Shown here piece by piece: positions 972 through 61,931 of a DNA stretch of 64,000 nucleotides. The notes beneath the pieces were generated by a model. It saw only the letters and a list, made by a program, of their open reading frames with translations. It had not been told where the DNA came from and ran no database searches. Source of the DNA: Eledone cirrhosa (Eukaryota); assembly GCA_964016885.1 (NCBI GenBank), contig OZ024757.1, positions 8,060,001 to 8,124,000 of the forward strand, in the 5' to 3' direction. How positions within the stretch are numbered: position 1 is the first letter of the stretch; each line of letters opens with the position of its first letter. Position numbers and translations under genes: made by a program.

Positions 972-3420
972 ATATAGAGGAACAATGGGAATTCCTGAAA
1001 GCAAACTTGCTGATGGCAGCAGATGAAATCTGTGTCTGGAGCAGATCTATAGGCAGGAGGAGAGTAACATGGTGGTGGAACAGTAAGGGGGAGGAGTCAA
1101 TTAAGGCCAAAAAGCAGGCTTGGTAAGCATGGCGGGATGGGGGAAGTATAGAACACTATCTGGTGGCCAGGAGGGAAGCTAGGAGACAAGTGTACTTCGC
1201 AAGAAGGGAAGCAGAGGAAAGCAAGTTCAAGCATGTTCTACAACGCGAGGACCAAAAACGTGAGGTGTTCAGGATTGCTAGGCAATGTGTCAAGGAAAAC
1301 CGTGATATTTTCGGGGAGAAGTGTGTACTTAATGATGATGGCGTACTTGCCATCACTGACGCTGATAAGAAGGTAGCTTGGAAGTGTCACTACGAAAGGC
1401 TACTAAATGAGGAGAATAAATGGGAGAAAGACAGTTTCCCCCACATCGACCCAATAGAGGGAACAGCTACAAGCCTAGATAGGAGTAACAATAGAGGCAT
1501 TAAATTAATCGACCAGGTCATGAAGGTCACAGAAAAAGTAATAGTGCAACTAATCAGACAGAGAATTGATCTAGATGAAATGCAGTTTGGGTTTGTGTCT
1601 GGCAAAAGTACCACAGACGCTCTTTTCATTGTACGACAACTACAGAAGTACCTAGCTAAAAGTAAACCCCTATACTTAGGTTTTGTCGACTTGGAGAAAG
1701 CCTTCGACAGAGTTCCCCGTTCCATTATCTGGTGGGCTCTTAGAAAACTAGGTGTTGACGAATGGCTTGTGAGAGCTATACAAGCCATCTATAAAGAAAC
1801 AGTCAGCAAGGTTAGAATTAACAACGAATATAGTGAAGAGTTTAGCGTAAAAGCTGGTGTTCATCAGGGCTCTGTTCTTAGCCCCCTACTATTTATTATT
1901 GCCCTTCAGGCTATAACAGTGGAGTTCAAGACCGGCTGCCCATGGGAACGGCTATACGAAGATGATCTAACGCTCATAGCTGAATCAATGGCCGAGCTAG
2001 AGAAGAAATTCAAAACATGGAAGCACGGCCTAGAATCAAAAGGCCTTAAAATTAACCTGGCTAAGACTAAAGTTCTAGTTTGTAGGAAAGAAAATAAGGC
2101 GCCAGTCCCTTCCGAGAAATGGCCATGCTCAGTGTGTAGGAAAGGCGTAGGTAGAAACTCCATTTTATGTCCCAAATGCAAAATATGGGTGCATAAAAGA
2201 TGTAGTGGGATCACAGGTAAGCTAACTAAGAACATAGATTTTACATGTGGCCGGTGCTCTGGTGTAATAAGTAGCAGCAAGTTCCCACAAAATACTAGCT
2301 CTTTCAATTGCGCAGAGGGTTCTATAGAAATAGTGGACAGCTTCCGTTACCTGGGTGACAAAATCAGCAGTGGGGGAGGGTGCTCTGAAAGTACAGTTGC
2401 TAGAGTCAGAACTGGATGAAAAAAGTTCAGAGAGCTTATACCACTATTAGCCGCTAAAGGGTTCTCCCTAAAAATGAAAGGCAGGCTGTATGATGCCTGC
2501 ATACGAACAGCAATGTTGCATGGCAGTGAGACCTGGGCATTGTGTGCAGAGGATATACGCAGGCTAGAGAGGAACGAAGCTTGCATGCTCCGCTGGATGT
2601 GTAATAGTAATATACGCGAACGGCAAAGCATAAACGAACTAAGGGAAAAATTAGAAATAAGAGGGATCAGATGTTGTTTACTCGAGAGAAGGCTACGTTG
2701 GTATGGTCACGTGATGCGCATGAAAGACGACAGCTGTAAAATAAAGTGCAGGGCAATAAAGATAGACGGTAGCCACGGAATAGGCAGACCCAGAAAAACC
2801 TGGGACGAGCTGATAAATTCCGACCTCACACACTTACACCTCTCCAAGACAATGTCACTGGACCGAGATCTTTGCCGGTACACAGTAATAGAGAAGATCC
2901 GCCTTACCTAAGTACAAAGTAAAACGTACTACAGTCAGTAGGCATCTCTCACAAAATACACCCCCGTCCCACCCCACCCCACCCCATCCACACCGCCCCT
3001 TTCAATGTAAAGTTATGTTGGTGCCACAAAATCCAGGCCGAAACAAATGAGATCGTGTAGGTGTCACGACAAAAAAAAAAAAAAACACACAGTCCACGCT
3101 GTAAATGTGGCCGTGTAGGCAACACGGTAAAAACCTCCCAGCCCCACACTGTAAATGTGGTTGGTGTTAGGAAGGGCATCCAGCTGTAGAAAACCCGCCA
3201 GACAGTCCACGCTGTAATGTGGCTGTGTAGGCAACACGGTAAAAACCTCCCAGCCTCACACTGTAAATGTGGTTGGTGTTAGGAAGGGCATCCAACTGTA
3301 GAAAACCCGCCAGACAGTCCTATGCGAGCAAGACAACCACTCTTGCCTCAAGTGGGAAAAATCCCGTCCAAACCCATGCAAGCGTTGAACATGGACGTTA
3401 AACGATGATGATGATGATGA
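972..3420 (+). mobile_element. RTE-clade LINE family A, 5'-truncated, decayed RT with PHD-type insert, 3' UTR and (ATG)n tail
   Basis: ORFs 1163-2419 and 2474-2911 with FVDLEKAFDRV, GVHQGSVLSP, YEDD (YADD), FRYLG, RLRWYGHV, GRPRKTW; in-frame stops; internal deletion near 1470; ends GGACGTTAAACG(ATG)n. Confidence 0.92.
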
Positions 3421-4461: not shown

Positions 4462-4517
4462 TATATATATACACACACAACATACATCTATCTATATACA
4501 CTGATAACATATATTTC

Positions 4518-5137
4518 GGCAGTGTCATGGTATTAGCTGTCAGAAGTGAAAGTAGAAAAAGGTGTCGTCATTCGTCAACCTTCTCAATCCTTTATTTCCG
4601 TATCACTATTCCCTTTATTTATGTTTAGGATTTTCTAAGAGATACGTTTACGATGAGATACACTTATTAAATAATATATGGGGACCAAATAACCCCGTAA
4701 TTTTCGAGAGAAACGATAATATACAATCTTATTTAACATGTGTATTAAAAACTACACTAGCTGTTACAATTGTAATTAACGTGTAAGAACTTAAATGAAA
4801 ATATAGGTGGCCCTTAAAAGGGCCGGTGTTGAACTTAAATTTGTTTTCTAATTTGATAACCATGACTTGTTTCAACACCGGCCCTTTTAAGGGCCACCTA
4901 TATTTTCATTTAAGTTCTTACACGTTAATTACAATTGTAAGAGCTAGTGTAGTTTTTAATGCACATGTTAAATAAGATTGTATATTATCGTTTCTGTCGA
5001 AAATTACGGGGTTATTTGGTACCCATAAATAAAATCATAAACGTAAATAAACGGAAGAGTGATACGGAAATAAAGGATTGAGAAGGTTGACGACTGATGT
5101 CACCTTCTTTCTGACAGCTAATACCACGACAGTGCCC
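4518..5137. mobile_element. Palindromic foldback/MITE-like element with a histone-type stem-loop in each arm (copy 1)
   Basis: Long inverted arms GGCAGTGTCATGGTATTAGCTGTCAG...CTGACAGCTAATACCACGACAGTGCCC around a ~40 bp spacer; second copy at 18766-19386. Confidence 0.85.
4880..4900 (+). promoter_or_regulatory. Histone 3' stem-loop-like motif GGCCCT-TTTA-AGGGCC-ACCTA (mirror copy on - strand at 4804-4824)
   Basis: Fits the GGYYYU-UYUH-ARRRCC-ACC consensus; no histone ORF nearby. Confidence 0.6.
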
Positions 5138-18765: not shown

Positions 18766-19386
18766 GGGTACTGTCGTGGTATTAGCTGTCAGAAAGAAGG
18801 TGACGTCATTCGTCAACCTTCTCAATCGTTTATTTCCGTATCACCACGCGGTTATTTACGTTTATGATTTCATTTATGGGAACCAAATAACCCCGTAATT
18901 TGAGAGAGAAACGATAATATACAATCTTATTTAACATGTGCATTAAAAACTACACTAGCTGTTACAATTGTAATTAACGTGTAAGAACTTAAACGAAAAT
19001 ATAGGAGGCCCTTAAAAGGGCCGGTGTTGAACTTAAATTTGTTTTCTAATTTGATAACCATGACTTGTTTCAACACCGGCCCTGTTAAGGGCCACCTATA
19101 TTTTCATTTAAGTTCTTACACGTTAATTACAATTGTAACAGCTAGTGTAGTTTTTAATGCACATGTTAAATAAGATTGTATATTATCGTTTCTCTCGAAA
19201 ATTACGGGGTTATTTGGTCCCCATATTATTTTTTTAATAAGTGTATCTCATCGTATGCGTATCTCTTAGAAAATCCTAAACATAAATAAAGGGAATAGTG
19301 ATACGGAAATAAAGGATTGAGAAGGTTGACGAATGACGTCACCTTCTTCTGCTTTCACTTCTGACAGCTAATATCATGACACTGCC
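18766..19386. mobile_element. Palindromic foldback element with histone-type stem-loops (copy 2)
   Basis: Same element as 4518-5137 with arms inverted; absent from the paralogous site at ~9790. Confidence 0.88.
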
Positions 19387-20269
19387 GAAATATATGTTAT
19401 AAATACCTCAAAATTCCTCATTAATTAAACCCAAGACAGGTAAAACTCTTTCAGTCGGACATAAAACAAATTAATTTCCAATGGAAGAAAAGATGTTAAA
19501 GTCAGCCAAGGGAGATCACTCTCAGCGACTTATTGGAATTCTTGTTCGTGAATTAATCTGGAATAAGTCATTCCGGTGTATTTTGTGTGGAGGAAACCGG
19601 TTTTAGGTGGTGATAGCACGCCGTACATAAACGTATGGTTCCTGAGTTCGAATCCCAGATCGGGTGGTCTGTACGTTGAGGCCTTGAACAAGACACTTTA
19701 TTTCTCATTGTTTTATTTCACCCAGCTGGAAAAATAATAAGTTGTACCAGTAATTATAGGGTAAACGTTGTTACATAGAATTGTCGCACTGAATCTCCCT
19801 GAGAACAATGTCAACGGTATACGTGTCAATGAAATACTCAGACACATTATAACATAAGATGGGTTCTACCCTTGTATTTCAAAGGGAAGCCATGTCATAC
19901 ATCTCGCTGAATCTCCCTGAGAACTACGTATATACTAGTGACTATCAGACATATTGTATCTAGGACTACATTATCTAATGTACAGTACAGTAATTAGTAT
20001 TAGTGGCTATCACACATAGTGTATCTAGGACTACATTATCTAATGTACAGTATAGTGTATATCAGACATATCGTACCTAGGACTACATTATCTAATGTAC
20101 AGTATAGTAGCTATCAGACATAGTGTATCTAGGATTATATTTTCTAATGTACAATATAGTGGCTATCAGACATAGTGTATCTAGGACTACATTATCTAAT
20201 GTTCAGTATAGCAGTTAGTATTTGTGGCTATCATTATTATAGACTTCAAGTAAATCTTTGTCAACTTAC

Positions 20270-21650: not shown

Positions 21651-24182
21651 ATCATCATCATCATCATCGTTTAACGTCCATGTTCCACGCTTGCATGGGT
21701 TTGGACGGGAGTTTTCCCACTTGAGGCAAGAGTGTTTGTCTTGTTCGCATAGGACTGTCTGGCGGATTTTCTACGGCTGGATGCCCTTCCTAACACCAAC
21801 CACATTTACAGTGTAGAACTGGGAGGTTTTTACCGTGTTATCTACACGGCCACATTACAGTGTGGACTGTGTTTTTTTGTCGTGAGACCTACACGACCTC
21901 ATTTGTTTCGGCCTGGATGTTGTGGTACCAACATAACTTTACATGGAAAGAGGTGAAGTGGATAGGGTGTGGGTATATTTTGTTAGAGGTGTCTACTGAC
22001 TGTAGTAGGTTTTACTTTGTATTTAGGTAAGGCGGGTCTTCTCTATTACTGTGTAGCGCCAAAGATCTCGGTCCAGAGACATTGTCTTGGAGAGGTGTAA
22101 GTGTGTGAGGTCGGAATTTATCAAGTCGTCCCAGGTTTTTCAGGAACTGCCTACTCCGTGGCTACCGCCTATTTTTATTGCCCTGCACTTTGTTATACAG
22201 CTGTCGTCTTTCATGCGCATCACGTGACCATACCAACGTAGTCTTCTCTCGAGTAAACAACATCTGATCCCTCTTATTCCTAATTTCTCCCTTAGTTTGT
22301 TTATGCTTTGCCGTTCACGTATATTACTATTACACATCCAGCGGAGCATGCAAGCTTCGTTCCTCTCTAGTCTGCGTATATCCTCTGCACACAATGCCCA
22401 GGTCTCACGGCCATGCAACATTTATGTTCGTATGCAGGCATCATACAGTCTACCTTTCATTTTTAAGGAGAACCCTTTAGCGGCTAATAGTGGTATAAGC
22501 TCTCTGAACTTTTTCCATCCAGTTCTGACTCTAGCTACTGTACTTTCAGAGCACCCACCCCTACTGCTGATTTTGTCACCCAGGTAACGGAAGCTGTCCA
22601 CTATTTCTATAGAACCATCTGTGCAATCGAATGAGCTAGTATTCTGTGGGCACTTGCTGCTACTTATTGCACCAGAGCACCGGCCACATATAAAAGCAAT
22701 GTTCTTAGTTAGCTTACTTGTGATCCCCCTACATCTTTTATGCACCCATACTTTGCATTTGGGACATAAAATGGAGTTTCTACCTACTCCTTTCCTACAC
22801 ACTGAGCATGGCCATTTCCCGGATAGGACCGGCGCCCTATTTTCCTTCCTACAAACTAGAACTTTAGTCTTAGACAGGTTAATTTTAAGGCCTTTTGATT
22901 CTAGGCCATGCTTCCATGTTTGGAATTTCTTCTCTAGTTCGGCCATTGATTCAGCTATGAGCGTTAGATCATCTGCGTATAGGAGTTCCCATGGGCAGCC
23001 GGTCTTGAACTCCACTGTTATAGCCTGAAGGGCAATAATAAATATTAGGGGGATAAGAACGGAGCCCTGATGAACACCAACTTTTACGCTAAACTCTTCA
23101 CTATATTCGTTGTTAATTCTAACCTTGCTGACTGTTTCTTTATACATGGCTTGTATAGCTCTCACAAGCCATTCATCAACACCTAGTTTTCTAAGAGCCC
23201 ACCAGATAATGGAACGGGGGACTCTGTCGAAGGCTTTCTCCAAGTCGACAAAACCTAAGTATAGGGGTTTACTTTTAGCTAGGTACTTCTCCTGTAGTTG
23301 TCGTACAATGAAAAGAGCGTCTGTGGTACTTTTGCCAGACACAAACCCGAACTGCATTTCATCTAGATCAATTCTCTCTCTGATTAGTTGCACTATTACT
23401 TTTTCTGTGACCTTCATGACCTGGTCGATTAATTTAATGCCTCTATTGTTACTCCTATCTAGGGCATCTCCTTTACCCTTGTAGCAGTTAATGATGATGC
23501 TGCTATGCCAGTCCTTCGGAACAACCCCATTCTGTATGACTTGGTTTACTATCCGTGTGACCATGGTGTGTCCCACCGTTCCAAGGATTTCAGCATTTCA
23601 GCAACTATTTCCGAAAGCCCAGCCGCCTTACCCGTCTTCATATCTTTGATTGCCTTACTTATTATACTACCTTCGACTAACACTGCTGTTCCCTCTATTG
23701 GGTCGATGTGTGGGAAACTGTCTTTCTCCCATTTATTCTCCTCATTTAGTAGCCTTTCGTAGTGACACTTCCAAGCTACCTTCTTATCAGCGTCAGTGAT
23801 GGCAAGTACGCCATCATCATTAAGTACACACTTCTCCCCTAAAATATCACGGTTTTCCTTGACACATTGCCTAGCAATCCTGAACACCTCACGTTTTTGG
23901 TCCTCGCGTTGTAGAACATGCTTGAACTTTCTTTCCTCTGCTTCCCTTCTTGCAAAGTACACTTATCTCCTAGCTTCCCTCCTGGCCACCAGATAGTGTT
24001 CTATACTTCCCCCATCCCACCATGCTTTCCAAGCCTGCTTTTTGGCCTTAATTGACTCCTCCCCCTTACTGTTCCACCACCATGTTACTCTCCTCCTGCC
24101 TATAGATCTGCTCCAGACACAGATTTCATCTGCTGCCATCAGCAAGTTTGCTTTCAGGAATTCCCATTGTTCCTCTATATTG
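21651..24182 (-). mobile_element. RTE LINE family A, longest copy (pre-RT linker, RT, PHD-type insert, C-terminus, 3' UTR)
   Basis: ORFs 23549-23962, 22422-23576 (KGKGD, DLEKAFD, HQGS, YADD, C4HC3, YLG) and 22140-22421, separated by frameshifts; no endonuclease domain present. Confidence 0.93.
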
Positions 24183-25169: not shown

Positions 25170-26580
25170 AAAGGGGATGATCCGGAGAGGAGCAATTATA
25201 GGAGTATAAAACTGATGGATCGGGTTATGAAAGTGGCAGAAAGGATATTAACACAACTAATTAGAGAAAGGGTCAAACTAGATGAGATGCAGTTTGGTTT
25301 TGTGCCTGGGAAAAGTACAACAGATGCCCTCTTCTTGGTGAGACAATTGCAAGAGAGGTTCTGAGAGAAGAGTAAGTCACTATACTTAGCCTTTGTTGAC
25401 CTAGAGAAGGCCTTTGATAGGGTTCCCCGATCTGTCATCTGGAGGTCCCTAAGGAAACTAGGTTTTGAGGAATGGCTTGTGAGGACAGTGCAAACTATGT
25501 ACAGAGGTGCTGTCAGTAAAGTCAGGGTAGGAATGGAGTTTAGTGAGGAATTCCAGATACAAGTAAGAGTACATCAAGGTTCGGTCCTCAGCCTGCTCTT
25601 GTTCATTATAGGCCTCCAAGCCATAACAGAGGAGTTTAAGACTGGCTGTGTATGGGAACTTCTCTATGCTGACGATCTGGTTCTTATAGCAGAATCAGTA
25701 GAGGAGCTAGAGAATAAATTCTGGCTATGGAAACAGCAGTTGGAAGCAAGAGGACTGAGGGTGAACCTAGCTAAGACAAAAGTGTTGATGAGTAGAAAAG
25801 AGGACAAAACTCTGATTCCCTCAAGGAAATGGCCATATTCGATATGCAGAAAAGGAACTGGCATAAATTCTATAAAATGCACACAATGCAGATGTTGGGT
25901 ACACAAGAGATGTAGTGGGATAGCAGGAAAACTAACAGGTAGGGAGAAATACGTATGCAGTAGATGTACAGGGAAATTAGACAGTAGAAGTCGCATTGAT
26001 AGACACATTTTTCAAATGCAGGAGGGCGCTATAGAAGTGGTGGATAGCTTCCGGTACCTCGAAGATCAGATTAGCATGGGAGGAGGGTGTTCCGAGGCCA
26101 TAGTATCTAGAATAAGGACGGGTTGGAAGAAGTTTAGGGAGCTGCTTCCTCTGCTGGCGAAGAAGGGTTTCTTCCTGCGTACGAAAGGCCGGTTGTATGA
26201 TGCTTGTGTGTTGAGCGCGATGCTGCATGCAGTGTAAATGTGCATGAACGACCCAGCATAAATGTGTTGAGAGAGAAACTGTGTCTGAGAGGGATAGAAT
26301 GTAGTGTATGGGAGAGGAGACTGAGGTGGTATGGACATGTCATGCACATGGAGGATGACCGATGTGTGAAGAAGTGCCAGGAAATGCCAGTTGAGTACGT
26401 GGTAGGGGTAGACCACGAAAAACATGGGTGGAGGTGGTGAGAACAGACCTCAGATCATTGAAGCTCACGGTGGAGATGACGAAGTACCGTGACGAGTGGA
26501 GAGATGCTGAGCTTAATAAGACCCTTCCCACCCTTGCAAGCAGGGAAAAGCGAACGTAAAATGATGATGATGATGATGAT
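25170..26580 (+). mobile_element. RTE LINE family B fragment
   Basis: ORF 25479-26237 with YADD and PHD-type insert; (ATG)n tail. Confidence 0.9.
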
Positions 26581-26598
26581 ATATATATATATATATAT

Positions 26599-26822
26599 AT
26601 CATCATCATCACTGTTTTACGTCCGTTCTTCTATGCTAGCATGGGTTAGACGGGCTGTCCTGTTGTGGGCAGTGTCTGGTTGGCTGACCTTGTCTTGCTC
26701 ATACGGGAACTGATTCTGCCTTGATTTCTACAGCTGGATGCCCTTCCGAACACAAACCTTATTTACACTGAGAGATGGGTACTTTTCTTCCGTGGTGCCT
26801 ACATGTCCACTTTATAGTATGG
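26599..26822 (-). mobile_element. RTE/SINE 3' tail fragment (paralog 56150-56365)
   Basis: (CAT)n...TTTTACGTCC and CTACAGCTGGATGCCCTTCC on + strand. Confidence 0.75.
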
Positions 26823-26959
26823 GTTGATATATATATAATATATATATAACATATATATATATAATATATATATATCATATAATATATATAATATATATAT
26901 ATCATATAATATATATAACATATATATATATATAATATAATATATATATCTATATATAT

Positions 26960-27543
26960 CTGAGACAGACTGAGCATCAGAGGAATCAAATGCTGTGTGC
27001 AGGAGAGTCGGTTGCGTTGGTATGGACATGTGATGCGTATGAAGGATGATAGCTGCATAAAAAGGTGCAGAGCACTAGAAGTCGATGGAAGCCGCGGAGT
27101 GGGGAGACCCAAGATGACCTGGGATGAGGAGATAAAAGCCGACCTTACCCAATTACACCTCTCAAAGGCAATGACACACGACCGTGACCTCTGGCGTCAC
27201 GCAGTAATACAGAGTACCCGACCTCCCATGGGTACAAGTTGAAGCATATAGACAATATGCCCCCACACCCCCCACTGCAAGGTGGTCGTGGAGGTGCCAC
27301 GGCAAAAAAGCACCCAGCCCACACTGTAAAGTGGACGTGTAGGCGCCACGAAAAGCACCCAGCACTCACTGTAAATGAGGTTGGTGTTAGAAAGGGCATC
27401 CAGCTGTAGAAATCAAGCCAGACCAGTTCCTGTATGAGCAAGGAATGGTCAGCCGACCAGACACTGCCCAGAACAGGACAACCTGTCTAACCCATGCTAA
27501 AGTGGAAGAACGGACGTAAAACAGTGATGAGGATGATGATGAT
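26960..27543 (+). mobile_element. RTE LINE family D 3' end with structured 3' UTR
   Basis: RLRWYGHVMRM...GRPKMTW ORF 26997-27242, pseudoknot-like modules, (ATG)n tail. Confidence 0.85.
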
Positions 27544-27544
27544 A

Positions 27545-27713
27545 TCTAAAATAGAGAATGCCTAAAACTGAAGAACCACCCAACCGATTGTCTTTAAACT
27601 TTAGACATGTAATATTTATAGTCCTGTGAGTGTTTTGAGGAGAAAAATTTCAAATTTTCAATGCCCTAGGGACCGCATTAGGCGATTTAGCGATCTCCAG
27701 CACATTCGGCTAG
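27545..27713 (+). mobile_element. Short non-autonomous Helitron-like element (paralog 57601-57769)
   Basis: A|TCTAAAATAG...AACCGATTGTCTTTAAACTTT...GCTAG|T ends, no TSD; 3' hairpin not clearly intact. Confidence 0.55.
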
Positions 27714-27732
27714 TAATATATATATAATATAT

Positions 27733-27945
27733 ATGGCTTAGTGGTTAGAACATTGGGCTTGTAATTGAAAGGTTGTGAGTTCAAATCTTGGACCGGGTGA
27801 TGTGTTATGTCCTTGAGCAAGACACTTTACTTCACGTTGCTCCTTCTACCTGGAGTTGTGATCAATAGATAGTATTAGCAATTGGAAAGACCAATGGAAA
27901 CATTGTTTCTTCGGTCCAATTTGACGAAAGTCGATCGACTGACGA
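27733..27945 (+). mobile_element. tRNA-derived SINE, second family (non-ATG tail); paralog 57790-58000
   Basis: A/B boxes, GTCCTTGAGCAAGACACTT core; same body as 34391-34600. Confidence 0.8.
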
Positions 27946-28131
27946 TATATATATGTATATATATATATTATACATATATATATAATATATATATATATGT
28001 GTCACTTGCTGGATCTGCTAGAAGGACCCAGATAATATGAGATGTTCTCCCGGCTGTATCATATACTGCAAATCTATGCAGATGTATACACATATATACA
28101 CAAACACATAAAGATACACTTGTAATTATAC

Positions 28132-28650
28132 ACACATTGAAGTGGTTGATAGCTTCTGTGACTTAATTAGCAGTGGAGGATGACTGTATAACACCTGCCA
28201 ATAAAATATGATGCTGCATGGTAGTGAAACAAGGGCTGTGACAGTAGAAAAAAAGTGTAGACTGGAGAGGAATGAAGCAACCATGATACATTGGATGTGC
28301 CATTTAAGTGTGAGAGAAAGGCAGAGCTTGGACAAATTGAGGGAGAAGCTGGGTTTAAGAGGGATCTTATGAGATGTGTAAGAGAGAAGACTGGATTGGT
28401 ACGGACATGTGATACACATGGATAATGACAGCTGGGTGAAGAAGTGCCAGGATATCACAGTAGAAAGAAGCCATAGTAGAGGTACACCAAGAAAGACCTG
28501 GACAGAGGCTGTGTGAACTGACTCTCACAGAGGAGATGACAAAGGAACACGACAAGTTGAAAGATGCCATGTTGAGAAGGACATGTCCAGCCCAAGGAAG
28601 CATAGAAAAACGAACATAAAAACAGTGATGATGTTGATGAAGATGACGTA
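28132..28650 (+). mobile_element. Degenerate RTE 3' fragment (paralog 58188-58705)
   Basis: Remnants of MLHGSET, RLERNEA, WYGHV; degenerate ATG tail. Confidence 0.75.
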
Positions 28651-28697
28651 CATATTCACACATACATAATAAATAAATCAAATACAGATATGCACAG

Positions 28698-29039
28698 TGG
28701 AGGCACATGTCTTAGTGGTTAGAGCATTGGCCTTGCAATCGAAAGGTTGTGAGTTCAATTCTCAGACTGTGTGATGTGATGTTTCCTTGAGCAAGACACT
28801 TTATTTCACATTGCTCCAGTTTATTCAGCTGAAGAAATGAGATGATAGGGACTGGGGTTCCTATCATTCCACTGCAAAGTGGTCGTGGAGGTGCCACGGC
28901 AAAAAAGCACCCAGCACTCTCTGTAAATGAGGTTGGTGTTAGGAAGGGCATCCAGCTGTAGAAATCAAGCCAGAATCAATTCAGTCCCACCCTTGCAAGC
29001 AGGGAAAAGCGGACACAAAATGATGATGATGATGATGAT
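28698..29039 (+). mobile_element. Full-length tRNA-derived SINE with RTE tail (paralog 58754-59091)
   Basis: Same family as 16405-16738. Confidence 0.88.
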
Positions 29040-29203
29040 ATGCACATACTTATATACAAACATATACATGGACACAAATTTCTACACACATACATTCACA
29101 TATAGCATATGTCAATTCTGAACAATACAGTTTAGTCAGCACAAGTCTTGGTTACAACTTCTACAAATAAAATGAAAGAAGAAGAATTTCTTAGTAAAAC
29201 AGT

Positions 29204-29209
29204 TTTATT
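29204..29209 (-). terminator. Candidate AATAAA polyadenylation signal of the ZNF transcript (paralog 59256-59261)
   Basis: First AATAAA seen on the - strand after the decayed-finger tract. Confidence 0.4.
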
Positions 29210-29299
29210 CAAGATATTAACAACATTGGTGGCAGTATTTTAGGTGAGTGACATGGTTTTTACCTTGTCTGATTGTGTTTGTGTTGCATCAAGTAACAT

Positions 29300-29780
29300 T
29301 TACAAGAGAATTATTTACCACAGACACCACAATGATATGGTTCCTCTCATGTATATGTTAGTGTGTAGTGAAGTCACAACATTTAGAGAATGATTTATCA
29401 CAGACACCACAGGGATATGGTTCCTCTCCTGTATATGTTAGTGTGTAGGCAGGCCACAACATTTAGAGTATGATTTATCACAGACATCACAGGGATATGG
29501 TTCCTTTCCTGTATATTAGTGTGTAGTGAAGCCACAACATTTAGAGAATGATTTACTACAGACATCACAGTGATATGGTTCCTCTCCTGTATATTAGTGT
29601 CTAGTTAAACCACAACATTTAGAGAATGATTTATCACAGTGATATGGTTCCTCTCCTGTATGTTAGTGTTTAGTGAAACCAAAACATATAGAGAAGGATT
29701 TACCACAGACATCACAGTGATATAGTTCTTCTCCTGTATGTTAGTGTCTAGTGAAACCAAAATTAGAAAATGATTTACAT
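29300..29780 (-). repeat. Decayed zinc-finger-derived ~70-80 bp tandem repeats (putative 3' UTR); paralog 59355-59830
   Basis: Units retain GGAGAGGAACCATATCACTGTGATGTCTGTGGTAAATCATTCTCT (GEEPYHCDVCGKSFS-like) but are shorter than 84 bp and out of frame. Confidence 0.8.
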
Positions 29781-29782
29781 GG

Positions 29783-29899
29783 GCTCACGGTGTATATGAC
29801 AAAGGACCGTGACAAGTGGAGAGATGCTGTGTTGAATAGGACTCATCCCACCCTTGCAAGCAGGGAAAAGCAGACGTAAAATGATGATGATGATGATGA
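29783..29899 (+). mobile_element. RTE family B extreme 3' end inserted in the decayed-finger tract (paralog 59833-59952)
   Basis: Matches 14305-14420; (ATG)n tail. Confidence 0.85.
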
Positions 29900-30113
29900 T
29901 ATGTTTTCCCTCATCTATGCATATATTTAGTTAAATTGCTGCATTAAAAGATATATTTTCCAAACATATCAAAGTGATATGGCTTCCCACCTGTATATAT
30001 TTGTGTTAATGTAGCATTGAAAGAGAATGATTTACCATAGATATTACACTGATATATATTTGTATTCTCATTAATTCACAATTTTGTGAGGATTTATCAC
30101 TGATGTCAATTCG

Positions 30114-31890
<1,777 letters not shown>

Positions 31891-32067
31891 AATAATTTTA
31901 TCTCCAACAGAATATACTTGTAATATTTTTTAGATTATATTCCTAAAAAATATATCTTCTATATTTCCCTCAACTGTGATTTCAGTTAATAGTCTTCAAA
32001 TGATGATAAATAGAGGTGATGTATCCGAGATTGAAAATAATAATTTATCCTAATGTCATCTGGTATT

Positions 32068-32095
32068 CTGAAATAAGAAAGAAACAGTATGAGAT
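32068..32095 (-). promoter_or_regulatory. Splice acceptor of the ZNF coding exon (paralog 62109-62135)
   Basis: ACTGTTTCTTTCTTATTTCAG| polypyrimidine tract plus CAG, 177 nt upstream of the ATG. Confidence 0.7.
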
Positions 32096-32450
32096 AATAG
32101 AGAATACTTAAGAAGCAGAGATAGATTTAACAGTGGAAATTTTATATTTCTATATTGGTAGACTGTAGATATCAACTTTCCTGTCCAGAGTAATTCTCTC
32201 CAATGCAAACAGTGGTATTCCAGCATGCTCTATAAATGTTATCCTTCTATCTCTAGAGAAGTCTGCTCTATGGCAGTTTAGTGAAAAATTCCTTCTGATA
32301 GGACTCTCTAACATAGCAATTATCTACTCTCCTGGTGACATGACAACACCAGTTTAACTTCCATCTTTTTATTAGTAGGAGTCAATTGTTCCTCTACATC
32401 TTTTTCTTACTTCTTTTCTATCTTCCTCTGGGAGAAATCGGCTGTGTTTA

Positions 32451-33575
32451 TCCTTTGCAGTTGCTGCCCATGTCTTACTACCATGCAGCATCGCACATCG
32501 GCATCATATAACCATCCTTTCGTATGCAGGGACAAACCCTTCTTTGTCAACAGAGAAAGCAGCTCCCTAGACTTCTTCCAACCCATCCTTATTCTAGATA
32601 CTATGGCCTCGGAACACCCCTCCCATGCTAATCTGATCACCTAGGTACCGGAAGCTATCAACCACATCTATAGAACCCACCTGTATTTGAAAAATGTGTT
32701 TATCACTGCGATTACTACTGCCAACTTTCCCTGTACATCTACTGCATACATAGTTATCCCTACCTGTTGGTTTGCCTGCTATCCCACTACATCTCTTGTG
32801 TACCCAACATCTGCATTGCGTACATTTTATGGAATTTATGCCAGTTCCTTTCCCACATATCGAACATGGCCATTTCCACGATGGAATCAGAGTTTTGTCC
32901 TCTTTTCTACTCATCAACACTTTTGTTTAAGCTATGTTCACTCTCAGGCCTCCTGATTCCAACTGCTGTTTCCATAGCCAGAATTTATTCTCTAACCCCT
33001 CTACTGATTCGCTGATTCTGCTATAAGAACCAGATCATCAGCATAGAGAAGTTCCCATGGGCATCCAGTCTTAAACTCCTCTGTTATGGCTTTTAGGCCT
33101 ATAACGAACAAGAGTAGGCTGAGGACCGAACCTTGACGTACACCTACTTGTATCTGGAATTCCTCACTAAACTCCATTCCTACCCTCACTTTACTGACAG
33201 CACCCCTGTACATAGCTAGCACTGTCCTCACAAGCCATTCCTCTACACCTAGTTTCCTTAGGGACCACCAGATGACAGATCAGGGTACCCTATCAAAGAC
33301 CCTCTCTAGGTCAATAAAAGATATGTATAGTGACTTATTCTTCTCTAAGAACCTCCTTGTAGTTGCCTCACTATGAAGAGGGTTTCTGTTGTACTTTTCC
33401 GAGGCACAAAACCAAACTGCATCTCATCTAAATTGACCCTTTCTCTAATCAGCTGCGCTAATATTCTCTCTGCCACTTTCATAACCTGATCCATCAGCTT
33501 TATGCCCCTATAATTGCTCCTCTCTAGAGCATCCCCTTTACCTTTGTAGCAATTTATGAGAATACTGCTGTACCT
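32451..33575 (-). mobile_element. RTE family B internal fragment (paralog 62492-63615)
   Basis: ORFs 32594-32920 (PHD-type insert) and 33001-33231 (YADD). Confidence 0.88.
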
Positions 33576-33627
33576 ACATTATATGCTTTCATTATACCAT
33601 TCTATTTAGATTATATATATTGATTGT

Positions 33628-34083
33628 CATCATCATCATCGTTTAACGTCTACCTTCCACGCTGGCATGGGTTTATATGGGAATTGTCCCACTTGAGGCA
33701 AGATTGGTCGGGTGACCGTATCTCACTTGTATAGGACTAGATGGCGGGTTTTCTATGGCTGGATATCCTTCCTAACACCAACCACGTTTACAGTGTGGAC
33801 TGGGAGGTTTTTACCATGTTACCTACACGGCCACATTACAGCGTGGACTGTGTGTTTTTTTGTCGTGACACCTACACGATCTCATTTATTTAGGACTGGA
33901 TGTTGTGGTACCAACATAACTTTACAGAGATAGGGTGGTGTTGATGGGGTGGAATAGGGGTAGTGGGATGTATATTTGGTTAAGAGGTGCCTACTGACTG
34001 TAGGTTTCGCTATGTACATAGGCAAGGCGGATCTTCTGTATTACTGAGTAGCGCCAAAGATCTCGGTCCAGTGACATTGTCTT
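33628..34083 (-). mobile_element. RTE family A 3' end (paralog 63669-64000)
   Basis: 3' UTR modules and (CAT)n tail. Confidence 0.85.
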
Positions 34084-53809: not shown

Positions 53810-54605
53810 ACAGGTGTGGACGATATTTGGTCGCAATTTTCAACTACTAATGTTATGCAAATTTCTTTTACTTCCGTTGTCACTCTTGTCCTCATAAAAA
53901 CAGTGACTAGATTTCCATTATTTATTTTCAGAATAATTGATTATGAATAATTTTGAACCTCCAAATTTGTGGAAGAGACACGGAGTTCTTCTTGGAACCT
54001 GTGCCGGGAAGACAAATAAGACCAGAAGATCAACTCCCAGAACAACAGGTGGCTCGCTGTCTCATCCAAAGACGTGCCCAGAGTCATGCACATAAAGTTT
54101 CCACCGACAACATTGGTCTTAGGTGTCGTCAGCAGTCAAGGTGACGTAATGCCACTTGACTGCTTCCCTGAGGGTCTCAAGCTGAACACCGATGGCTACA
54201 TTCGCGTTCTGAGCGAGGTAGTAAAGCCCTGGATCAACCAGGTAGCTGCAGGTAGGGCATACGTGTGGCAGCAAGACTCAGCGCCCTGCCATACCAGCCA
54301 AAAGGTCCAAGCCTGGCTGTCAGAGAACTTCATCGACCTCACCTCCCCTGACATCTGGCGTCCCAACTAGCCTGACTGCAATCCTCTCGACTTCTTTGTG
54401 TGGGGCGCAGTGGAACGAGACACCAACAGATCCAGCTGCAATACGAAAGACGATCTGAAAGCCAGGATCACAAGTGCCTTTAGGGGCCTAAATCAGGGGA
54501 CAGTGACGAAGGCTTGTAGCCGGTTTCGAGGCCGTCATCAAAGCCAATGGCGGGTTATTTTTTCGTAGACAGTAATCTTGCAAATATTTATTGTCCGCAC
54601 CCTGT
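53810..54605 (+). mobile_element. Non-autonomous DD37D (maT) Tc1/mariner element
   Basis: TIRs, TA flanks, WQQDSAPCH...WRPN*PDCNPLD; small deletion near the right end. Confidence 0.88.
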
Positions 54606-54659: not shown

Positions 54660-56135
54660 AAAAGGGGATGCTCTGGAGAGGAGCAATTATAGGGGTATAA
54701 AACTGATGGATCGTGTTATGAAAGTGGCAGAAAGGATATTAGCACAACTAATTAGAGAAAGGGTCAAACTAGATGAGATGCAGTTTGGTTTTGTGCCTGG
54801 GAAAAGTACAACAGATGCCCTCTTCTTGGTGAGACAATTGCAAGAGAGGTTCTTAGAGAAGAATAAGTCACTATACATAGCCTTTGTTGACCTAGAGAAG
54901 GCCTTTGATAGGGTACCCCAATCTGTCATCTGGTGGTCCCTAAGGAAACTAGGTGTTGAGGAATGGCTTGTGAGGACAGTGCAAACTATGTACAGAGGTG
55001 CTGTCAGTAAAGTCAGGGTAGGAATGGAGTTTATTGAGGAATTCCAGATACAAGTAGTACATCAAGGTTCGGTCCTCAGCCTGCTCTTATTCATTATAGT
55101 ACTCCAAGCCATAACAGAGGAGTTTAAGGCTGGCTGTCCATGGGAACTTTTCTATGCTGACGATCTGGTTATTATAGCAGAATCAGTAGAGTTGCTAGAG
55201 AATAAATTCTGGCTATGGAAACAGCAGTTGGAAGCAAGAGGACTGAGGGTGAACCTAGCTAAGACAAAAGTGTTGATGAGTAGAAAAGAGGACAAAACTC
55301 TGATTCCGTCAGGGAAATGGCCATGTTCGATATGCAGAAAAGGAACTGGCATAAATTCTATAAAATGCACACAATGCAGATCTTGGGTACACAAGAGATG
55401 TAGCGGGATAGCAGGCAAACTAACAGATAGGGAGAAATATGTATGCAGTAGATGTACAGGGAAATTAGACATTAGAAGTCACATTGATAGACACATTTTT
55501 CAAATGCAGGAGGGCGCTATAGAAGTGGTGGATAGCTTCCGGTACCTAGGAGATCAGATTAGCATGGGATGAGGGTGTTCCGAGGCCATAGTGTCGAGAA
55601 TAAGGAGGGGTTGGAAGAAGTTTAGGCATCTGCTGACGAAGAAGGGTTTCTCCCTGCGTACGAAAGGCCGGTTGTATGATGCCTGTGTGAGGAGCGCGAT
55701 GCTGCATGGTAGTGAGACATGGGCAGCAACTGCAGAGGATATGTGACGGCTGGAGAGAAATGAGGCAAGCATGCTCCGTTGGATGTGCAGTGTAAATGTG
55801 CTTGAACGACTCAGCATGAATGTGTTGAGAGAGAAACTGTGTCTGAGAGGGATAGAGTGTAGTGTACGGGAGAGGAGACTGAGGTGGTATGGATATGTGA
55901 TGCGCATGGAGGATGACCGATGGGTGAAGAAGTGCCAGAAAATGCCAGTTGAAGGAAGACATGGTAGAGGTAGACCACGAAAAACATGGGCGGAGGTGGT
56001 GAGAACAGACCTCAGATCATTGAAGCTCACGGTGGAGATGACGAAGGATCGTGACGAGTGGAGAGATGCTGTGCTGAATAAGACCCGTCCCACCCTGGCA
56101 AGCAGGGAAAAGCGAACGTAAAATGATGATGATGA
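54660..56135 (+). mobile_element. RTE family B fragment
   Basis: ORFs 54706-55572 (FYADD, full C4HC3 motif) and 55771-56121; (ATG)n tail. Confidence 0.92.
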
Positions 56136-56499
56136 TATATATATATATATCATCACTGTTTTACGTCCGTTCTTCTATGCAAGCATGGGTTAGACGGGTT
56201 GTCCTGTTGTGGGCATTGTCCGGCTGGCTGACCTTGTCTTGCTCATACGGGAACTGATTCTGCCTTGATTTCTACAGCTGGATACGCTTCCTAACACCAA
56301 CCTTATTTACACTGAGACATGGGTACTTTTCTTCCGTGGTGCCTACATGTCCACTTTATAGTACGGGTTGATATATATATAATATATATATATTATATAT
56401 ATAATATATATATAACATATATATATATATATAATATATATATATCATATAATATATATAACATATATATATATATAATATAATATATCTATATATATC

Positions 56500-57599
56500 T
56501 GAGAGACAGACTGAGCATCAGAGGAATCAAATGCTGTGTGCAGGAGAGGCGGTTGCGTTGGTATGGACATGTGATGCGTATGAAGGATGACAGCTGATCT
56601 CAGGAAGCTTAATTAACAATGTAGGATTCACATGCAGCAGCTGTGCTGAGACAGCAAGCAGCAAGCAGCCACAGGAAACAAGTACCACCAATCTCTGGGA
56701 AGGCCCTGTAGAAACAGTAGACAGCTTCTGCTACCTAGGTGACCGAATTAGCAGCGGAGGTGGGTGTTCAGAAAGTACAATAACTAGGGTAAGAACAGGA
56801 TGGAAGAAGTTTAGGGAACTACTACCACTGCTAGCTGCAAAAGGCTTCTCCCAAAGAATGAAAGGCAGACTGTATGATGCGTGTATCCCAACAGCGATGT
56901 TGCATGGTAGCGAGACCTGGGCGCTGAAGGTGGAAGACTTACGGAGATTAGAGAGAAACGAAGCCTGCATGCTGGATGTGTAACAGTAATATACGTGAAC
57001 AACAAAGCATAAATGAATTGAGAGAGAGACTGAGCATAAGAGGAATCAAATGCTGTGTGCAGGAAGGCAGTTGCGCTGGTATGGACATGTGATGCGTATG
57101 AAGGATGACAGTTGCATAAAAAGGTGCAGAGCACTAGAAGTTGATGGAAACCGCGGAGTGGGGAGACCCAAGATGACCTGGGATGAGGTGATAAAAGCCG
57201 ACCTTATCCAATTACACCTCTGAAAGACAATGACACATGACCATGACTTCTGGCGTCACGCAGTAATACAGAGCACCCGACCTCCCATGGGTACAAGCTG
57301 AAGCATATAGAAAATATGCCCCACACCCCCCACTGCAAGGTGGTCGTGGAGGTGCCACGGCAAAAAAGCACCCAGCCCACACTGTAAAGTGGACGTGTAG
57401 GCGCCACGAAAAAGCACCCAGCACTCACTGTAAATGAGGTTGGTGTTAGGAAGGGCATCCAGCTGTAGAAATCAAGCCAAATCAGTTCCTTCATGAGCAA
57501 GGAATGGTCAGCCGACCAGACACTGCCTACAACAGGACAACCCGTCTAACCCATGCTAACGTGGAAGAACATACGTAAAACAGTGATGATGATGATGAT
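56500..57599 (+). mobile_element. RTE family D 3' portion with internal duplication
   Basis: Two copies of GAGCATCAGAGGAATCAAATGCTG...GGATGACAG (56510-56595, 57030-57110); the paralog at 26960 has only one. Confidence 0.8.
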
Positions 57600-60152
57600 A
57601 TCTAAAATAGAGAATGCCTAAAACTCAAGAACCACCCAACTGATTGTTTTCAAACTTTACACATGTAATACTTATAGTCCTGTGAGCGTTTTGAGGAGAA
57701 AAGTTTCAAATTTTCAATGCCCTAGGGACCGCATTAGGCGATTTAGCGATCTCCAGCACATTCGGCTAGTAATATATATATAATATATATGGCTTAGTGG
57801 TTAGAACATTGGGCTTGTAATTGAAAGGTTGTGAGTTCAAATCTCGGACTGGGTGATGTGTTATGTCCTTGAGCAAGACACTTTACTTCACGTTGCTCCT
57901 TCTACCTGGAGTTGTGACCAGTAGATAGTATTAGCAATTGGAAAGACCAATGGAAACATTGTTTCTTCGGTCCAATTTGACGAAAGTCGATCGACTGACG
58001 ATATATATATGTATATATATATATTATACATATATATATAATATATATATATATGTGTCACTTGCTGGATCTGCTAGAAGGACCCAGATAATATGAGATG
58101 TTCTCCTGGCTGTATCATATACTGCAAATCTATGCAGATGTATACACATATATACACAAACACATAAAGATACACTTGTAATTATACACACATTGAAGTG
58201 GTTGATAGCTTCTGTGACTTAATTAGCAGTGGAGGATGACTGTATAACACCTGCCAATAAAATATGATGCTGCATGGTAGTGAAACAAGGGCTGTGACAG
58301 TAGAAAAAAAGTGTAGACTGGAGAGGAATGAAGCAACCATGATACATTGGATGTGCCATTTAAGTGTGAGAGAAAGGCAGAGCTTGGACAAATTGAGGGA
58401 GAAGCTGGGTTTAAGAGGGATCTTATGAGATGTGTAAGAGAGAAGACTGCATTGGTACGGACATGTGATACACATGGATAATGTCAGCTGGGTGAAGAAG
58501 TGCCAGGATATCACAGTAGAAAGAAGCCATAGTAGAGGTACACCAAGAAAGACCTGGACAGAGGCTGTGTGAACTGACTCTCACAGAGGAGATGACAAAG
58601 GAATACGACAAGTTGAAAGATGCCATGTTGAGAAGGACATGTCCAGCCCAAGGAAGCATAGAAAAACGAACATAAAAACAGTGATGATGTTGATGAAGAT
58701 GACGTACATATACACACATACATAATAAATAAATCAAATACAGATATGCACAGTGGAGGCACATGTCTTAGTGGTTAGAGCATTGGCCTTGCAATCGAAA
58801 GGTTGTGAGTTCAATTCTCAGACTGTGTGATGTGTTGTTTCCTTGAGCAAGACACTTTATTTCACATTGCTCCAGTTTATTCAGCTGAAGAAATGAGATG
58901 ATAGGGACTGGGGTTCCTATCATTCCACTGCAAAGTGGTCATGGAGGTGCCACGGCAAAAAGCACCAAGCATTCACTGTAAATGAGGTTGGTGTTAGGAA
59001 GGGCATCCAGCTGTAGAAATCAAGCCAGAATCAATTCAGTCCCACCCTTGCAAGCAGGGAAAAGCGGACACAAAATGATGATGATGATGATATGCACATA
59101 CTTATATACAAACATATACATGGACACAAATTTCTACACACATACATTCACATATAGCATATGTCAATTCTGAACAATACAGTTTAGTCAGCACAAATCT
59201 TGGTTACAACTTCTACAAATAAAACGAAAGAAGAAGAATTTCTTAGTAAAACAGTTTTATTCAAGATATTAACAACATTGGTGGCAGTATTTTAGGTGAG
59301 TGACATGGTTTTTACCTTGTCTGATTGTGTTTGTGTTGCATCAAGTAACCTTTACAAGAGAATTATTTACCACAGACACCACAATGATATGGTTCCTCTC
59401 CTGTATATGTTAGTGTGTAGTGAAGTCACAACATTTAGAGAATGATTTATCACAGACACCACAGGGATATGGTTCCTCTCCTGTATATGTTAGTGTGTAG
59501 GCAGGCCACAACATTTAGAGTATGATTTATCACAGACATCACAGGGATATGGTTCCTTTCCTGTATATTAGTGTGTAGTGAAGCCACAACATTTAGAGAA
59601 TGATTTACTACAGACATCACAGTGATATGGTTCCTCTCCTGTATATTAGTGTCTAGTTAAACCACAACATTTAGAGAATGATTTATCACAGTGATATGGT
59701 TCCTCTCCTGTATGTTAGTGTTTAGTGAAACCAAAACATATAGAGAAGGATTTACCACAGACATCACAGTGATATAGTTCTTCTCCTGTATGTTAGTGTC
59801 TAGTGAAACCAAAATTAGAAAATGATTTACATGGGCTCACGGTGTATATGACAAAGGACCGTGACAAGTGGAGAGATGCTGTGTTGAATAGGACTCATCC
59901 CACCCTTGCAAGCAGGGAAAAGCAGACGTAAAATGATGATGATGATGATGATATGTTTTCCCTCATCTATGCATATATTTAGTTAAATTGCTGCATTAAA
60001 AGATATATCAAAGTGATATGGCTTCCCACCTGTATATATTTGTGTTAATGTAGCATTGAAAGAGAATGATTTACCATAGATATTACACTGATATATATTT
60101 GTATTCTCATTAATTCACAATTTTGCGAGGATTTATCACTGATGTCAATTCG

Positions 60153-61931
60153 TTAAGATTTCTCCTCTGCATGTATGAGTTTGTGAGTAGTTAGGCTACT
60201 TTCCCCAGAGAATGATTTACCACAGTAATCACAGTGGTATGGCTTCTCTCCTGTATGTATATGTTTGTGTCTAGTTAAGGTACTACTTTGAGAGAATGAT
60301 TTACCACAGATATCACAGTGGTACGGCTTGTCTCCTGTATGGGTATGTTTGTGTTTAGTTAAGGTACTACTATCAGAGAATGATTTACCACAGATATCAC
60401 AGCGATATGGCTTCTCACCTGTATGTATTCGTTTGTGTAAAGTTAAGTGACCACTTTGAGAGAATGATTTACCACAGCTATCACAGTGGTATGGCTTGTC
60501 TCCTGTATGGGTATGTTTGTGTTTAGTTAAGGTACTACTATCAGAGAATGATTTACCACAGATATCACAGTGGTATGGCTTGTCTCCTGTATGTATACGT
60601 TTGTGGGAAGTCAAGTGACTACTTCGGGAGAATGATTTACCACAGATATCACAGCGATATGGCTTGTCTCCTGTATGTATACGTTTGTGGGAAGTTAAGT
60701 GACTACTTCGAGAGAATGATTTACCACAGATATCACAGTGAAATGGCTTGTCTCCTGTATGTATACGTTTGTGGGAAGTTAAGTGACTACTTCGAGAGAA
60801 TGATTTACCACAGATATCACAGCGATATGGCTTGTCTCCTGTATGTATATGTTTGTGGCTAGTTAAGGTACTACTTAATGAGAATGATTTACCACAGATA
60901 TCACAATGATATGGCTTGTCTCCTGTATGGGTACGTTTGTGTCTAGTTAAGGTACTACTATCAGAGAATGATTTACCACAGATATCACAGTGGTATGGCT
61001 TCTCTCCTGTATGCATATGTTTGTGTCTAGTTAACTTACTACTTAATGAGAATGATTTACCACAGATATCACAGTGATATGGCTTGTCTCCTGTATGGGT
61101 ACGTTTGTGTCTAGTTAAGGTACTACTATCAGAGAATGATTTACCACAGATATCACAGTGGTATGGCTTCTCTCCTGTATGTATATATTTGTGTCTAGTT
61201 AACTTACTACTCTCAGAGAATGATTTACCACAGATATCACAGTGGTATGGCTTGTCTCCTGTATGCATACATTTGTGGCTAGTTAAGGAACTACTCTCAG
61301 AGAAAGATTTACCACAGATATCACAGTGATATGACATATACCCTGTATGTATACGCAGGTGTGTAGTCAAGGTACTACTTTTATTGAATGATTTACCACA
61401 GATATCACAGTGATATGTCCTCTGTCCTGTATGTATACGTTTATGTCTAGTTAAGTGACTACTTTGAGAGAATGATTTACCACAGATGTCACAGTGGTAT
61501 GGCTTGTCTCCTGTATGGGTACGTAAGTGTTTAGTTAATGCATCACTTCGAGGGAATGTTTTACCACAGATATCACAGTGATATGGCTTCTCACCTGTAT
61601 GTAAATGGTTGTGAGTAGTTAAGGTACTACTTTTAGTGAATGATTTACCACAGATATCACAGTGATATGGCTTCTCACCTGTAGGTAAATGGTTGTGACT
61701 AGTTAGGCTACTTTTCCCAGAGATTGATTTACTACAGATATTACAGTGATATGGTTTGTCTCCTGTATGTATAACTTTGTGAGTAGTTAAGGTACTACGT
61801 ATATTGAATGATTTACCACAGATATTGCAGTGATATGCTTTCTCTTCTCCAACCTTTGTCATCTCGCCCGGAATACTAAACATTTTCGATTGTGTTTCGC
61901 ATTTAACCTTTTCACTCAATTTATTTTCCAT
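60153..61931 (-). CDS. Tandem C2H2 zinc-finger protein, 592 aa, 20 finger units (unit 2 lacks its second His), short N-terminus with no KRAB/ZAD/SCAN-like domain visible
   Basis: Uninterrupted ORF of [10 protein letters not shown]......L..H...HTG(D/E)KP repeats; upstream acceptor at 62109. Confidence 0.93.

Follow-up and report, generated by a model that had tools for sequence, protein, structure and literature searches.

Octopus genomes are rich in RTE LINEs and SINEs, according to the available sections of two reports (PMC9115989, PMC13282606), and it is established that pieces of RTE 5' UTRs serve as SINE bodies (PMC5786205, in the parts covered). Cleavage by a twister ribozyme at the 5' end of an RTE removes the cap and still allows translation of a reporter (accessible text of PMC8501958). 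Two questions are open: what keeps SINE bodies such as CORE conserved from one animal phylum to another, and by what means RTE RNAs with a single ORF and no cap are translated. The available portion of PMC13708176 describes RTE elements as being under development as gene-insertion tools, with UTRs that are optimised empirically.

Here we analyse a 64,000-nucleotide stretch of Eledone cirrhosa DNA (contig OZ024757.1, forward strand; hereafter the window). It is repeat-rich animal DNA with 5'-truncated RT ORFs that carry an inserted PHD finger, with C2H2 zinc-finger arrays and with microsatellites. An earlier reading, made from the letters without database searches, had flagged the region 27270-27420. 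Taking structure and origin jointly, we hold with good confidence that this region is a string of small RNA pseudoknots of predicted H type, carried by RTE elements and a SINE. The overall architecture of such elements is known. The three folds, the way they relate to CORE and the move from 5' to 3' do not appear to have been described: our literature search, with thin coverage of subscription journals, found no earlier description of these folds and no paper joining the CORE domain of SINEs/MIR to a pseudoknot. Both questions become testable by compensatory mutation through two predicted knots, one of 25 nt at the CORE end and one of 40 nt ahead of the RTE start codon, and the CORE knot matters even if the ribosome mechanism proposed below were wrong.

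Units of the module and their copies

The relevant features, in window positions and with stems S1 and S2 and loops L1 to L3, are:

3053 to 3420, + strand: 3' UTR of RTE family A, with units in the order A-B-A-B-C, B-A-B-C duplicated internally, then the tail
26967 to 27242, + strand: 3' end of a 5'-truncated RTE ORF of family D, stop codon at 27240-27242, tblastn match to the RTE protein of locus L131
27216 to 27239, + strand: putative decayed ancestral 3' tail within the ORF end, from its position and its likeness by eye to the tails of families B and C
27272 to 27285, + strand: B0, a partial B unit with the CCAC/GTGG stem, its upstream CAG partner absent; common to the SINE copies
27285 to 27314, + strand: A1, predicted H-type pseudoknot; S1 GTCGTG/CACGGC, L1 GA, S2 GGTGC/GCACC, L3 of six A
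27315 to 27334, + strand: B1, predicted H-type pseudoknot; S1 CAG/CTG, S2 CCAC/GTGG, L3 TAAA; fold as at the CORE 3' end
27336 to 27359, + strand: A2, the second A unit; S1 CGTG/CACG, S2 with one C-A mismatch
27360 to 27379, + strand: B2; S1 CAG/CTG, S2 CTCA/TGAG, L3 TAAA; alternatively a hairpin extended into GTTGG
27379 to 27419, + strand: motif C, conserved, of RTE 5'-UTR type; predicted S1 GYY(A)GG/CCRRC, S2 GGC(A)/(T)GCY and A-rich L3
27434 to 27436, + strand: ATG, 32 nt after CATCC, which equals the ORF-start spacing of RTE 5' UTRs; presumably a vestige
27482 to 27543, + strand: RTE 3' tail with outer stem, inner hairpin, A-rich bulge and GAT repeats; candidate RT-recognition element
28700 to 29040, + strand: SINE with tRNA-like head, CORE-like domain, B0, A, B, C and family-B tail, flanked by 10-bp direct repeats
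about 28817 to 28841, + strand: apparent B-type unit of the SINE's own CORE-like domain
56084 to 56135, + strand: 3' end of family B, a control in which the ORF continues into the tail and the module is absent

All units were found where the sequence-only reading had placed them (27285-27419), and family A (3053-3190) was also as it described. Its proposal of a modular structured RNA is supported and becomes wider, since the hairpins and the near-invariant block fit pseudoknots too: the predicted folds have two interleaved stems, a short L1, an L2 of 0-1 nt and an A-rich L3, and the RTE/SINE pseudoknots have G-U pairs on the sense strand. The sequence of the hairpins with a fixed CTGTAAA loop was correctly reported, but their fold had been under-called, since the CTG of the loop has a possible pairing partner in a CAG further upstream and the hairpins thus fit H-type pseudoknots. 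The near-invariant block is likewise present, although position 27391 is a private A here, with G in 6338 of 7369 and in 20182 of 21926 reads. The second unit, given as GGCGC/GCACC, is in its place, but its stem 2 contains a C-A mismatch.

Searching with a model of block C revealed 15 module copies in the window, spread over two sister RTE families and one tRNA/CORE-type SINE; the sites listed earlier do hold the module, but those at 26747, 56291, 58997 and 63813 had been missed. The copies cannot all be taken as independent witnesses, as the first reading had taken them, because part of the window is duplicated (26962-33959 at 57022-64000 with 98.5% identity, and 26228-27055 at 55786-56596 with 91.5% identity), and several of them therefore count once. 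The longer duplication, with a spacing of about 30 kb, contains a C2H2 zinc-finger array (30601-31929, 60156-61970). Elsewhere, at about 54100-54400, lies coding sequence that by eye resembles a fragment of a Tc1/mariner transposase.

A strict Watson-Crick scan for H-type pseudoknots, whose rules were fixed only after the motif had been seen, gave 10 matches on both strands of the window, every one within module copies, and 0, 0 and 1 matches on three block-shuffled windows. Shuffled modules produced a match in 2 of 1000 cases for family D and 5 of 1000 for family A. Minimum free energy folding without pseudoknots was unremarkable (z -0.26). In one DNA run with the same species label, 55,654 of 12,467,656 reads fell on a 311-nt stretch, most of them running upstream into SINE sequence; joints in the reads skip 41-46 nt or step back 29-47 nt, indicating that the number of module units varies.

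Rfam gave no match on the module, and in the window only histone stem-loops reached the gathering level; 20 loci outside the window gave 0 matches. Viral contigs contained 0 matches to two motif patterns and no related locus. The histone 3' stem-loop matches (4785-4829, 4875-4919, 19073-19117 and 18983-19027; no histone ORF was seen beside 4785-4919) lie one per arm in a MITE-like inverted-repeat element of roughly 630 bp, found at 4504-5137 and 18766-19400.

Unit A is laid out as an S1 core CGTG/CACG, a two-base L1, an S2 of 4-5 bp and an A-run. In nine distinct rows 83.7% of 92 cells are paired, a count that omits the second units of family A (AGGT/ACCT register), and two pairs change on both sides; S2 shows C-G to U-A in three rows and G-C to A-U in one. 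Slid controls pair at 13-60%, and the covariation score, which related rows inflate, was reached by 1 of 500 shuffles. The claim that stem 2 changes on both sides thus holds in A units, but the covariation is modest, because the CGTG/CACG core of S1 is nearly invariant. Second A units are weaker, with C-A mismatches in family D and in three family-A rows. No A-type unit was detected by the A-unit model in 16 outside loci (best E 0.95). Family A also shows one more B/A-like unit, decayed, ahead of A1 at about 3005-3035 (equivalents at 14790, 21930 and 33910), with a possible TGTTG/CAACA stem.

Unit B, the SINE and the CORE domain

S2 of the B units has at least 4 bp in 26 of 29 cases, with an L3 of 3-6 nt and an S1 that the search pattern demanded. 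In the alignment, which retains four of 19 rows mis-registered by MAFFT, 86.1% are paired; S2 changes from A-U to U-A, and S1 from G-C to U-G in one duplicated element. Scored as a pseudoknot, the unit was equalled by 2 of 500 shuffles; scored as a hairpin only, by 22 of 500, which is less distinct. Stem 1 is just 3 bp long, and in B2 a plain hairpin competes with the knot (-9.7 kcal/mol). Within B units, a two-sided change in S1 is seen only in one duplicated element of the window and in an oyster consensus.

The 3' end of the CORE-like domain in the window SINE shows the B-type fold. By eye, the same arrangement can be drawn at the 3' end of the oyster Cgi_CORE_1 consensus, with S1 CAC/GTG and S2 ACCCA/TGGGT (PMC4758252, from Fig. 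S10), in the alligator MIR1_AMi consensus, with CAG/CTG and TCCCCA/TGGGGA, and in the marsupial MAR1 consensus, with CAG/CTG and CTCA/TGAG (both from the supplement of PMC5786205). Among these three outside consensus sequences, S1 shows a two-sided change and S2 several. A pseudoknot of about 25 nt probably forms at the CORE 3' end. The 3' part of CORE is lost in WALLSI2, WALLSI4, SINE2-2_ACar and MIR_Xt, and in five of nine CORE-like copies of the window.

The SINE itself has a head with A and B boxes and a CORE-like stretch, both matching Cgi_CORE_1 by eye, and ends in a family-B tail; ARAGORN found no intact tRNA in the head. It shares the module with family D at 91% identity. The module had been described as part of SINE tails; it is instead the SINE body, separate from the LINE-derived tail. 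In two outside loci (L157 and L162), tRNA/CORE-headed SINEs of other animals have motif C and an RTE tail attached to the 5' half of CORE.

Motif C and the origin of the array

In 21 chosen rows the Y-R pair of motif C S1 is C-G in 14 and U-A in 7 and is never broken, the U-A form being limited to two lineages (the window and L164). In S2, the GGC of the loop finds a GCY partner downstream, each of these pairs being formed in 20-21 of the 21 rows. This partner lies outside the search pattern, and in 31 of 34 rows its end is 16-20 nt past CATCC; the two outer pairs of S2 are broken in 12 of the 21. Compensatory change is found in S1, that in S2 is one-sided only, and independent events are few; because the core is fixed by the search pattern, the covariation test is limited. 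A different pairing, GGTTGG/CCRRCY, was rejected (80.1% paired, score reached by 100 of 500 shuffles, versus 85.7% and 0 of 500 for the chosen one).

The motif C pattern matched about 130,000 metagenome stretches (an estimate from 1 of 64 parts) and 40 stretches in prokaryote assemblies. As an A-run follows the core, 15 loci of the latter were treated as stray animal DNA (L131, L132, L135, L139, L140, L142, L143, L145, L155, L157, L158, L162 and L164-L166); L141, L146 and L163 were put aside as overlaps, and the other stretches were dropped as chance matches. A motif C model run over 13 assemblies added one locus, L188, which the pattern had missed and which keeps both stems. Judged from these matches, motif C is widespread in animal DNA. 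The knot as drawn is not universal, since 130 of 139 distinct metagenome matches, nearly all of one family group, have no S2 partner following the A-run; in this group, judged by eye, an upstream stretch could pair with the motif C loop instead. The loci L001-L129 represent an element of about 250 nt that is non-autonomous and very abundant. It has a CAGTG/CRCTG stem (103 of 139 matches) at its start, immediately ahead of motif C, an RTE-like tail at its end and no tRNA head. L131-L166 and L188 also show that animal retroelement DNA (RTE ORFs, twister-type sequences) contaminates at least 13 prokaryote assemblies.

Motif C occupies the RTE 5' UTR, directly before the endonuclease ORF, in five loci (L131, L132, L155, L164 and L188). 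In four of them the first in-frame ATG follows CATCC by 29, 38, 27 and 26 nt, and motif C ends 9-20 nt before this AUG; L164 has ATA in the corresponding place. As L131 and L132 lie on one contig and the three others look related, this spacing may reflect descent. In three of the five, motif C stands right behind twister-type sequence: twister-P1 matches end at motif C in L155 (E 7e-13), L164 (1e-6) and also in L165 (1e-3), all below the gathering score of 67.2, and a twister core was recognised by eye before motif C in L188. Twister (RF03160) had no match in the window at E 0.05 and none in the module region at E 5. An ATG 28-33 nt after CATCC is kept in 8 of 11 terminal A/D copies and in 0 of 3 SINE copies.

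The retroelements of the window were assigned to RTE from RVT_1 matches, GAT tails and 36-58% protein identity to the EN-RT ORF of L131 (pairwise comparisons); all copies are 5'-truncated and no endonuclease match was found. Coding DNA is about 75% alike between families A and D and 68-70% for B, while the modules of A and D align at 84%; by these comparisons A and D are sisters. Their 3' ends consist of a decayed tail at the ORF end, the module, the ATG and a second tail, with the module lying 110-120 nt before the tail. The close relative L131 carries motif C in its 5' UTR and has a 3' end without the module. The simplest history, and likely the true one, is that an ancestor of A and D captured the array once from a bipartite element made of a 5' UTR and a tail, an event of the kind reported for SINE bodies (PMC5786205). 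The RTE proteins of the window (e.g. 1127-2416, 22425-23597 and 54661-55569) have a PHD finger directly after the RT domain, and the L131 protein has a cysteine pattern resembling it.

The 3' tail is common to all RTE families of the window and to the SINE. In families B and C, which account for 8 of the 21 RTE-type tails, the ORF runs straight into it with no module in between, and the LINE-like tail of the SINE is that of family B. RT recognition had been suggested as one possible role of the module; as an essential role it is therefore not supported. By analogy with tail recognition in the L2 LINE (PMC4176376, in the part available), the shared tail would be a better candidate.

Possible roles and comparison with known systems

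We tentatively propose that the pseudoknot chain may help RTE and SINE RNAs to engage ribosomes. The position of motif C, behind a cap-removing ribozyme and before the AUG, suggests such a role, and viral IRES pseudoknots are similarly placed. At its home position, motif C would help to start translation on RNA decapped by the twister ribozyme. Where these folds occur in the SINE body or in the 3' copies, they would keep the RNA at ribosomes, within reach of newly made RT protein, while the shared 3' tail would do the specific RT binding. Alu RNA docks at ribosomes via SRP, and by analogy the retention of the folds in non-coding elements would reflect docking near newly made RT. The likeness between family D and the SINE calls for caution, as exchange with an abundant SINE could mimic selection on the module. 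A bolder version is rather unlikely to hold as a whole: the CORE-end knot, the A unit and motif C would be interchangeable ribosome-engaging knots, the CORE knot being conserved from molluscs to mammals, with RTEs starting translation after ribozyme cleavage and SINEs stacking knots, parking at ribosomes and stealing the RT, which would be an RNA-only counterpart to the SRP docking of Alu.

The knots could instead be a second binding site for the RTE protein, used in RNP assembly or the second-strand step and raising mobilisation in cis and in trans. Non-coding bipartite elements do keep motif C beside the tail (L139, L140, L142, L145, L162 and the roughly 130,000 metagenome stretches), and R2 uses a 3'-UTR pseudoknot together with a folded 5' motif (accessible part of PMC12503042). 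We nevertheless consider this role unlikely, though far from negligible, as the 3' ends of families B and C do without the module (their 5' UTRs lie outside the window), the SINE combines the module with a family-B tail, and the AUG spacing would be left unexplained. The tandem knots could also be stability elements that hinder exonucleases on RNAs without a cap or a poly(A) tail. Their compact tandem folds would fit this, as would the varying number of units, which suits an additive effect, and the GAT repeats at the ends of these RNAs; in R2 tools, cap-like protection comes from a ribozyme fold with a double pseudoknot (PMC13708176, available portion). Such a role seems improbable, given that no xrRNA family in Rfam matched, that the stems are short and that the near-invariant loop letters of motif C suggest a specific partner. 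Both protein binding and nuclease blocking could act alongside ribosome engagement.

That the 3'-UTR module is a passenger, once functional in a 5' UTR or a SINE and kept alike by recent capture or SINE exchange, would fit the excess of reads that run on into SINE sequence over those that run on into family D (16285 loose ends in front of 27272, upstream depth near 3000), the 91% likeness of D and SINE in the module, the mismatch in A2 and the fact that families B and C manage without it. The stems of family A itself, however, still pair (C-G to U-A in S2 of A units, A-U to U-A in S2 of B units) while the flanking UTR has diverged, and this makes the passenger reading quite improbable. The self-cleaving motif suggested earlier is hardly credible: motif C follows twister sequences elsewhere and has near-invariant unpaired purines, and the junction of B2 with C looks similar to the 3' end of a twister, but the module lacks the twister core (P4 and both tertiary pairings), the window shows no match to any ribozyme family, twister-P1 precedes motif C only in other loci, and cutting in mid-SINE or upstream of the tail would part promoter or ORF from tail.

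Several described systems resemble the module in part. The upstream pseudoknot domain of tobamoviruses consists of three tandem knots; as here, small H-type knots stand in tandem upstream of a structured non-poly(A) 3' end, but the module has no tRNA-like end, no sequence or Rfam match to that domain, and a retroelement context. The 3'-UTR pseudoknot of R2 and the LINE 3' stem-loop bound by RT (PMC12503042 and PMC4176376, parts available) are likewise structured RNAs near a non-LTR 3' end; these are required and 3'-terminal, whereas the module lies upstream of the tail and is absent in sister families. Like motif C, the pseudoknot of HCV/pestivirus-type IRESs (the subject of PMC2212637 and PMC2760816) ends shortly before the AUG on an uncapped RNA, but the module lacks domains II/III and is unrelated in sequence, and Rfam IRES families had no match in the window or the 20 loci. 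Twister-P1 (RF03160; Perere-3, PMC8501958 in the part accessible) directly precedes motif C in L155, L164 and L165; it is absent from the window, and the module has no catalytic core.

The bipartite RTE elements and SINE bodies of Kojima 2018 (PMC5786205), in the parts covered, have the same tRNA head, CORE, RTE 5'-UTR piece and RTE tail, as well as a conserved domain in the 5' UTR and tail exchange. The motif C core was not found in the supplement of that work, where line breaks could hide matches, and no pseudoknot is proposed in the parts covered; here the cassette also occurs in the 3' UTR of ORF-bearing RTEs. In the CORE-SINEs MIR1_AMi, MAR1 and Cgi_CORE_1, the 3' end reads as a B-type fold with an A-rich L3, like unit B of the window, whereas here the B unit is repeated and alternates with A units.
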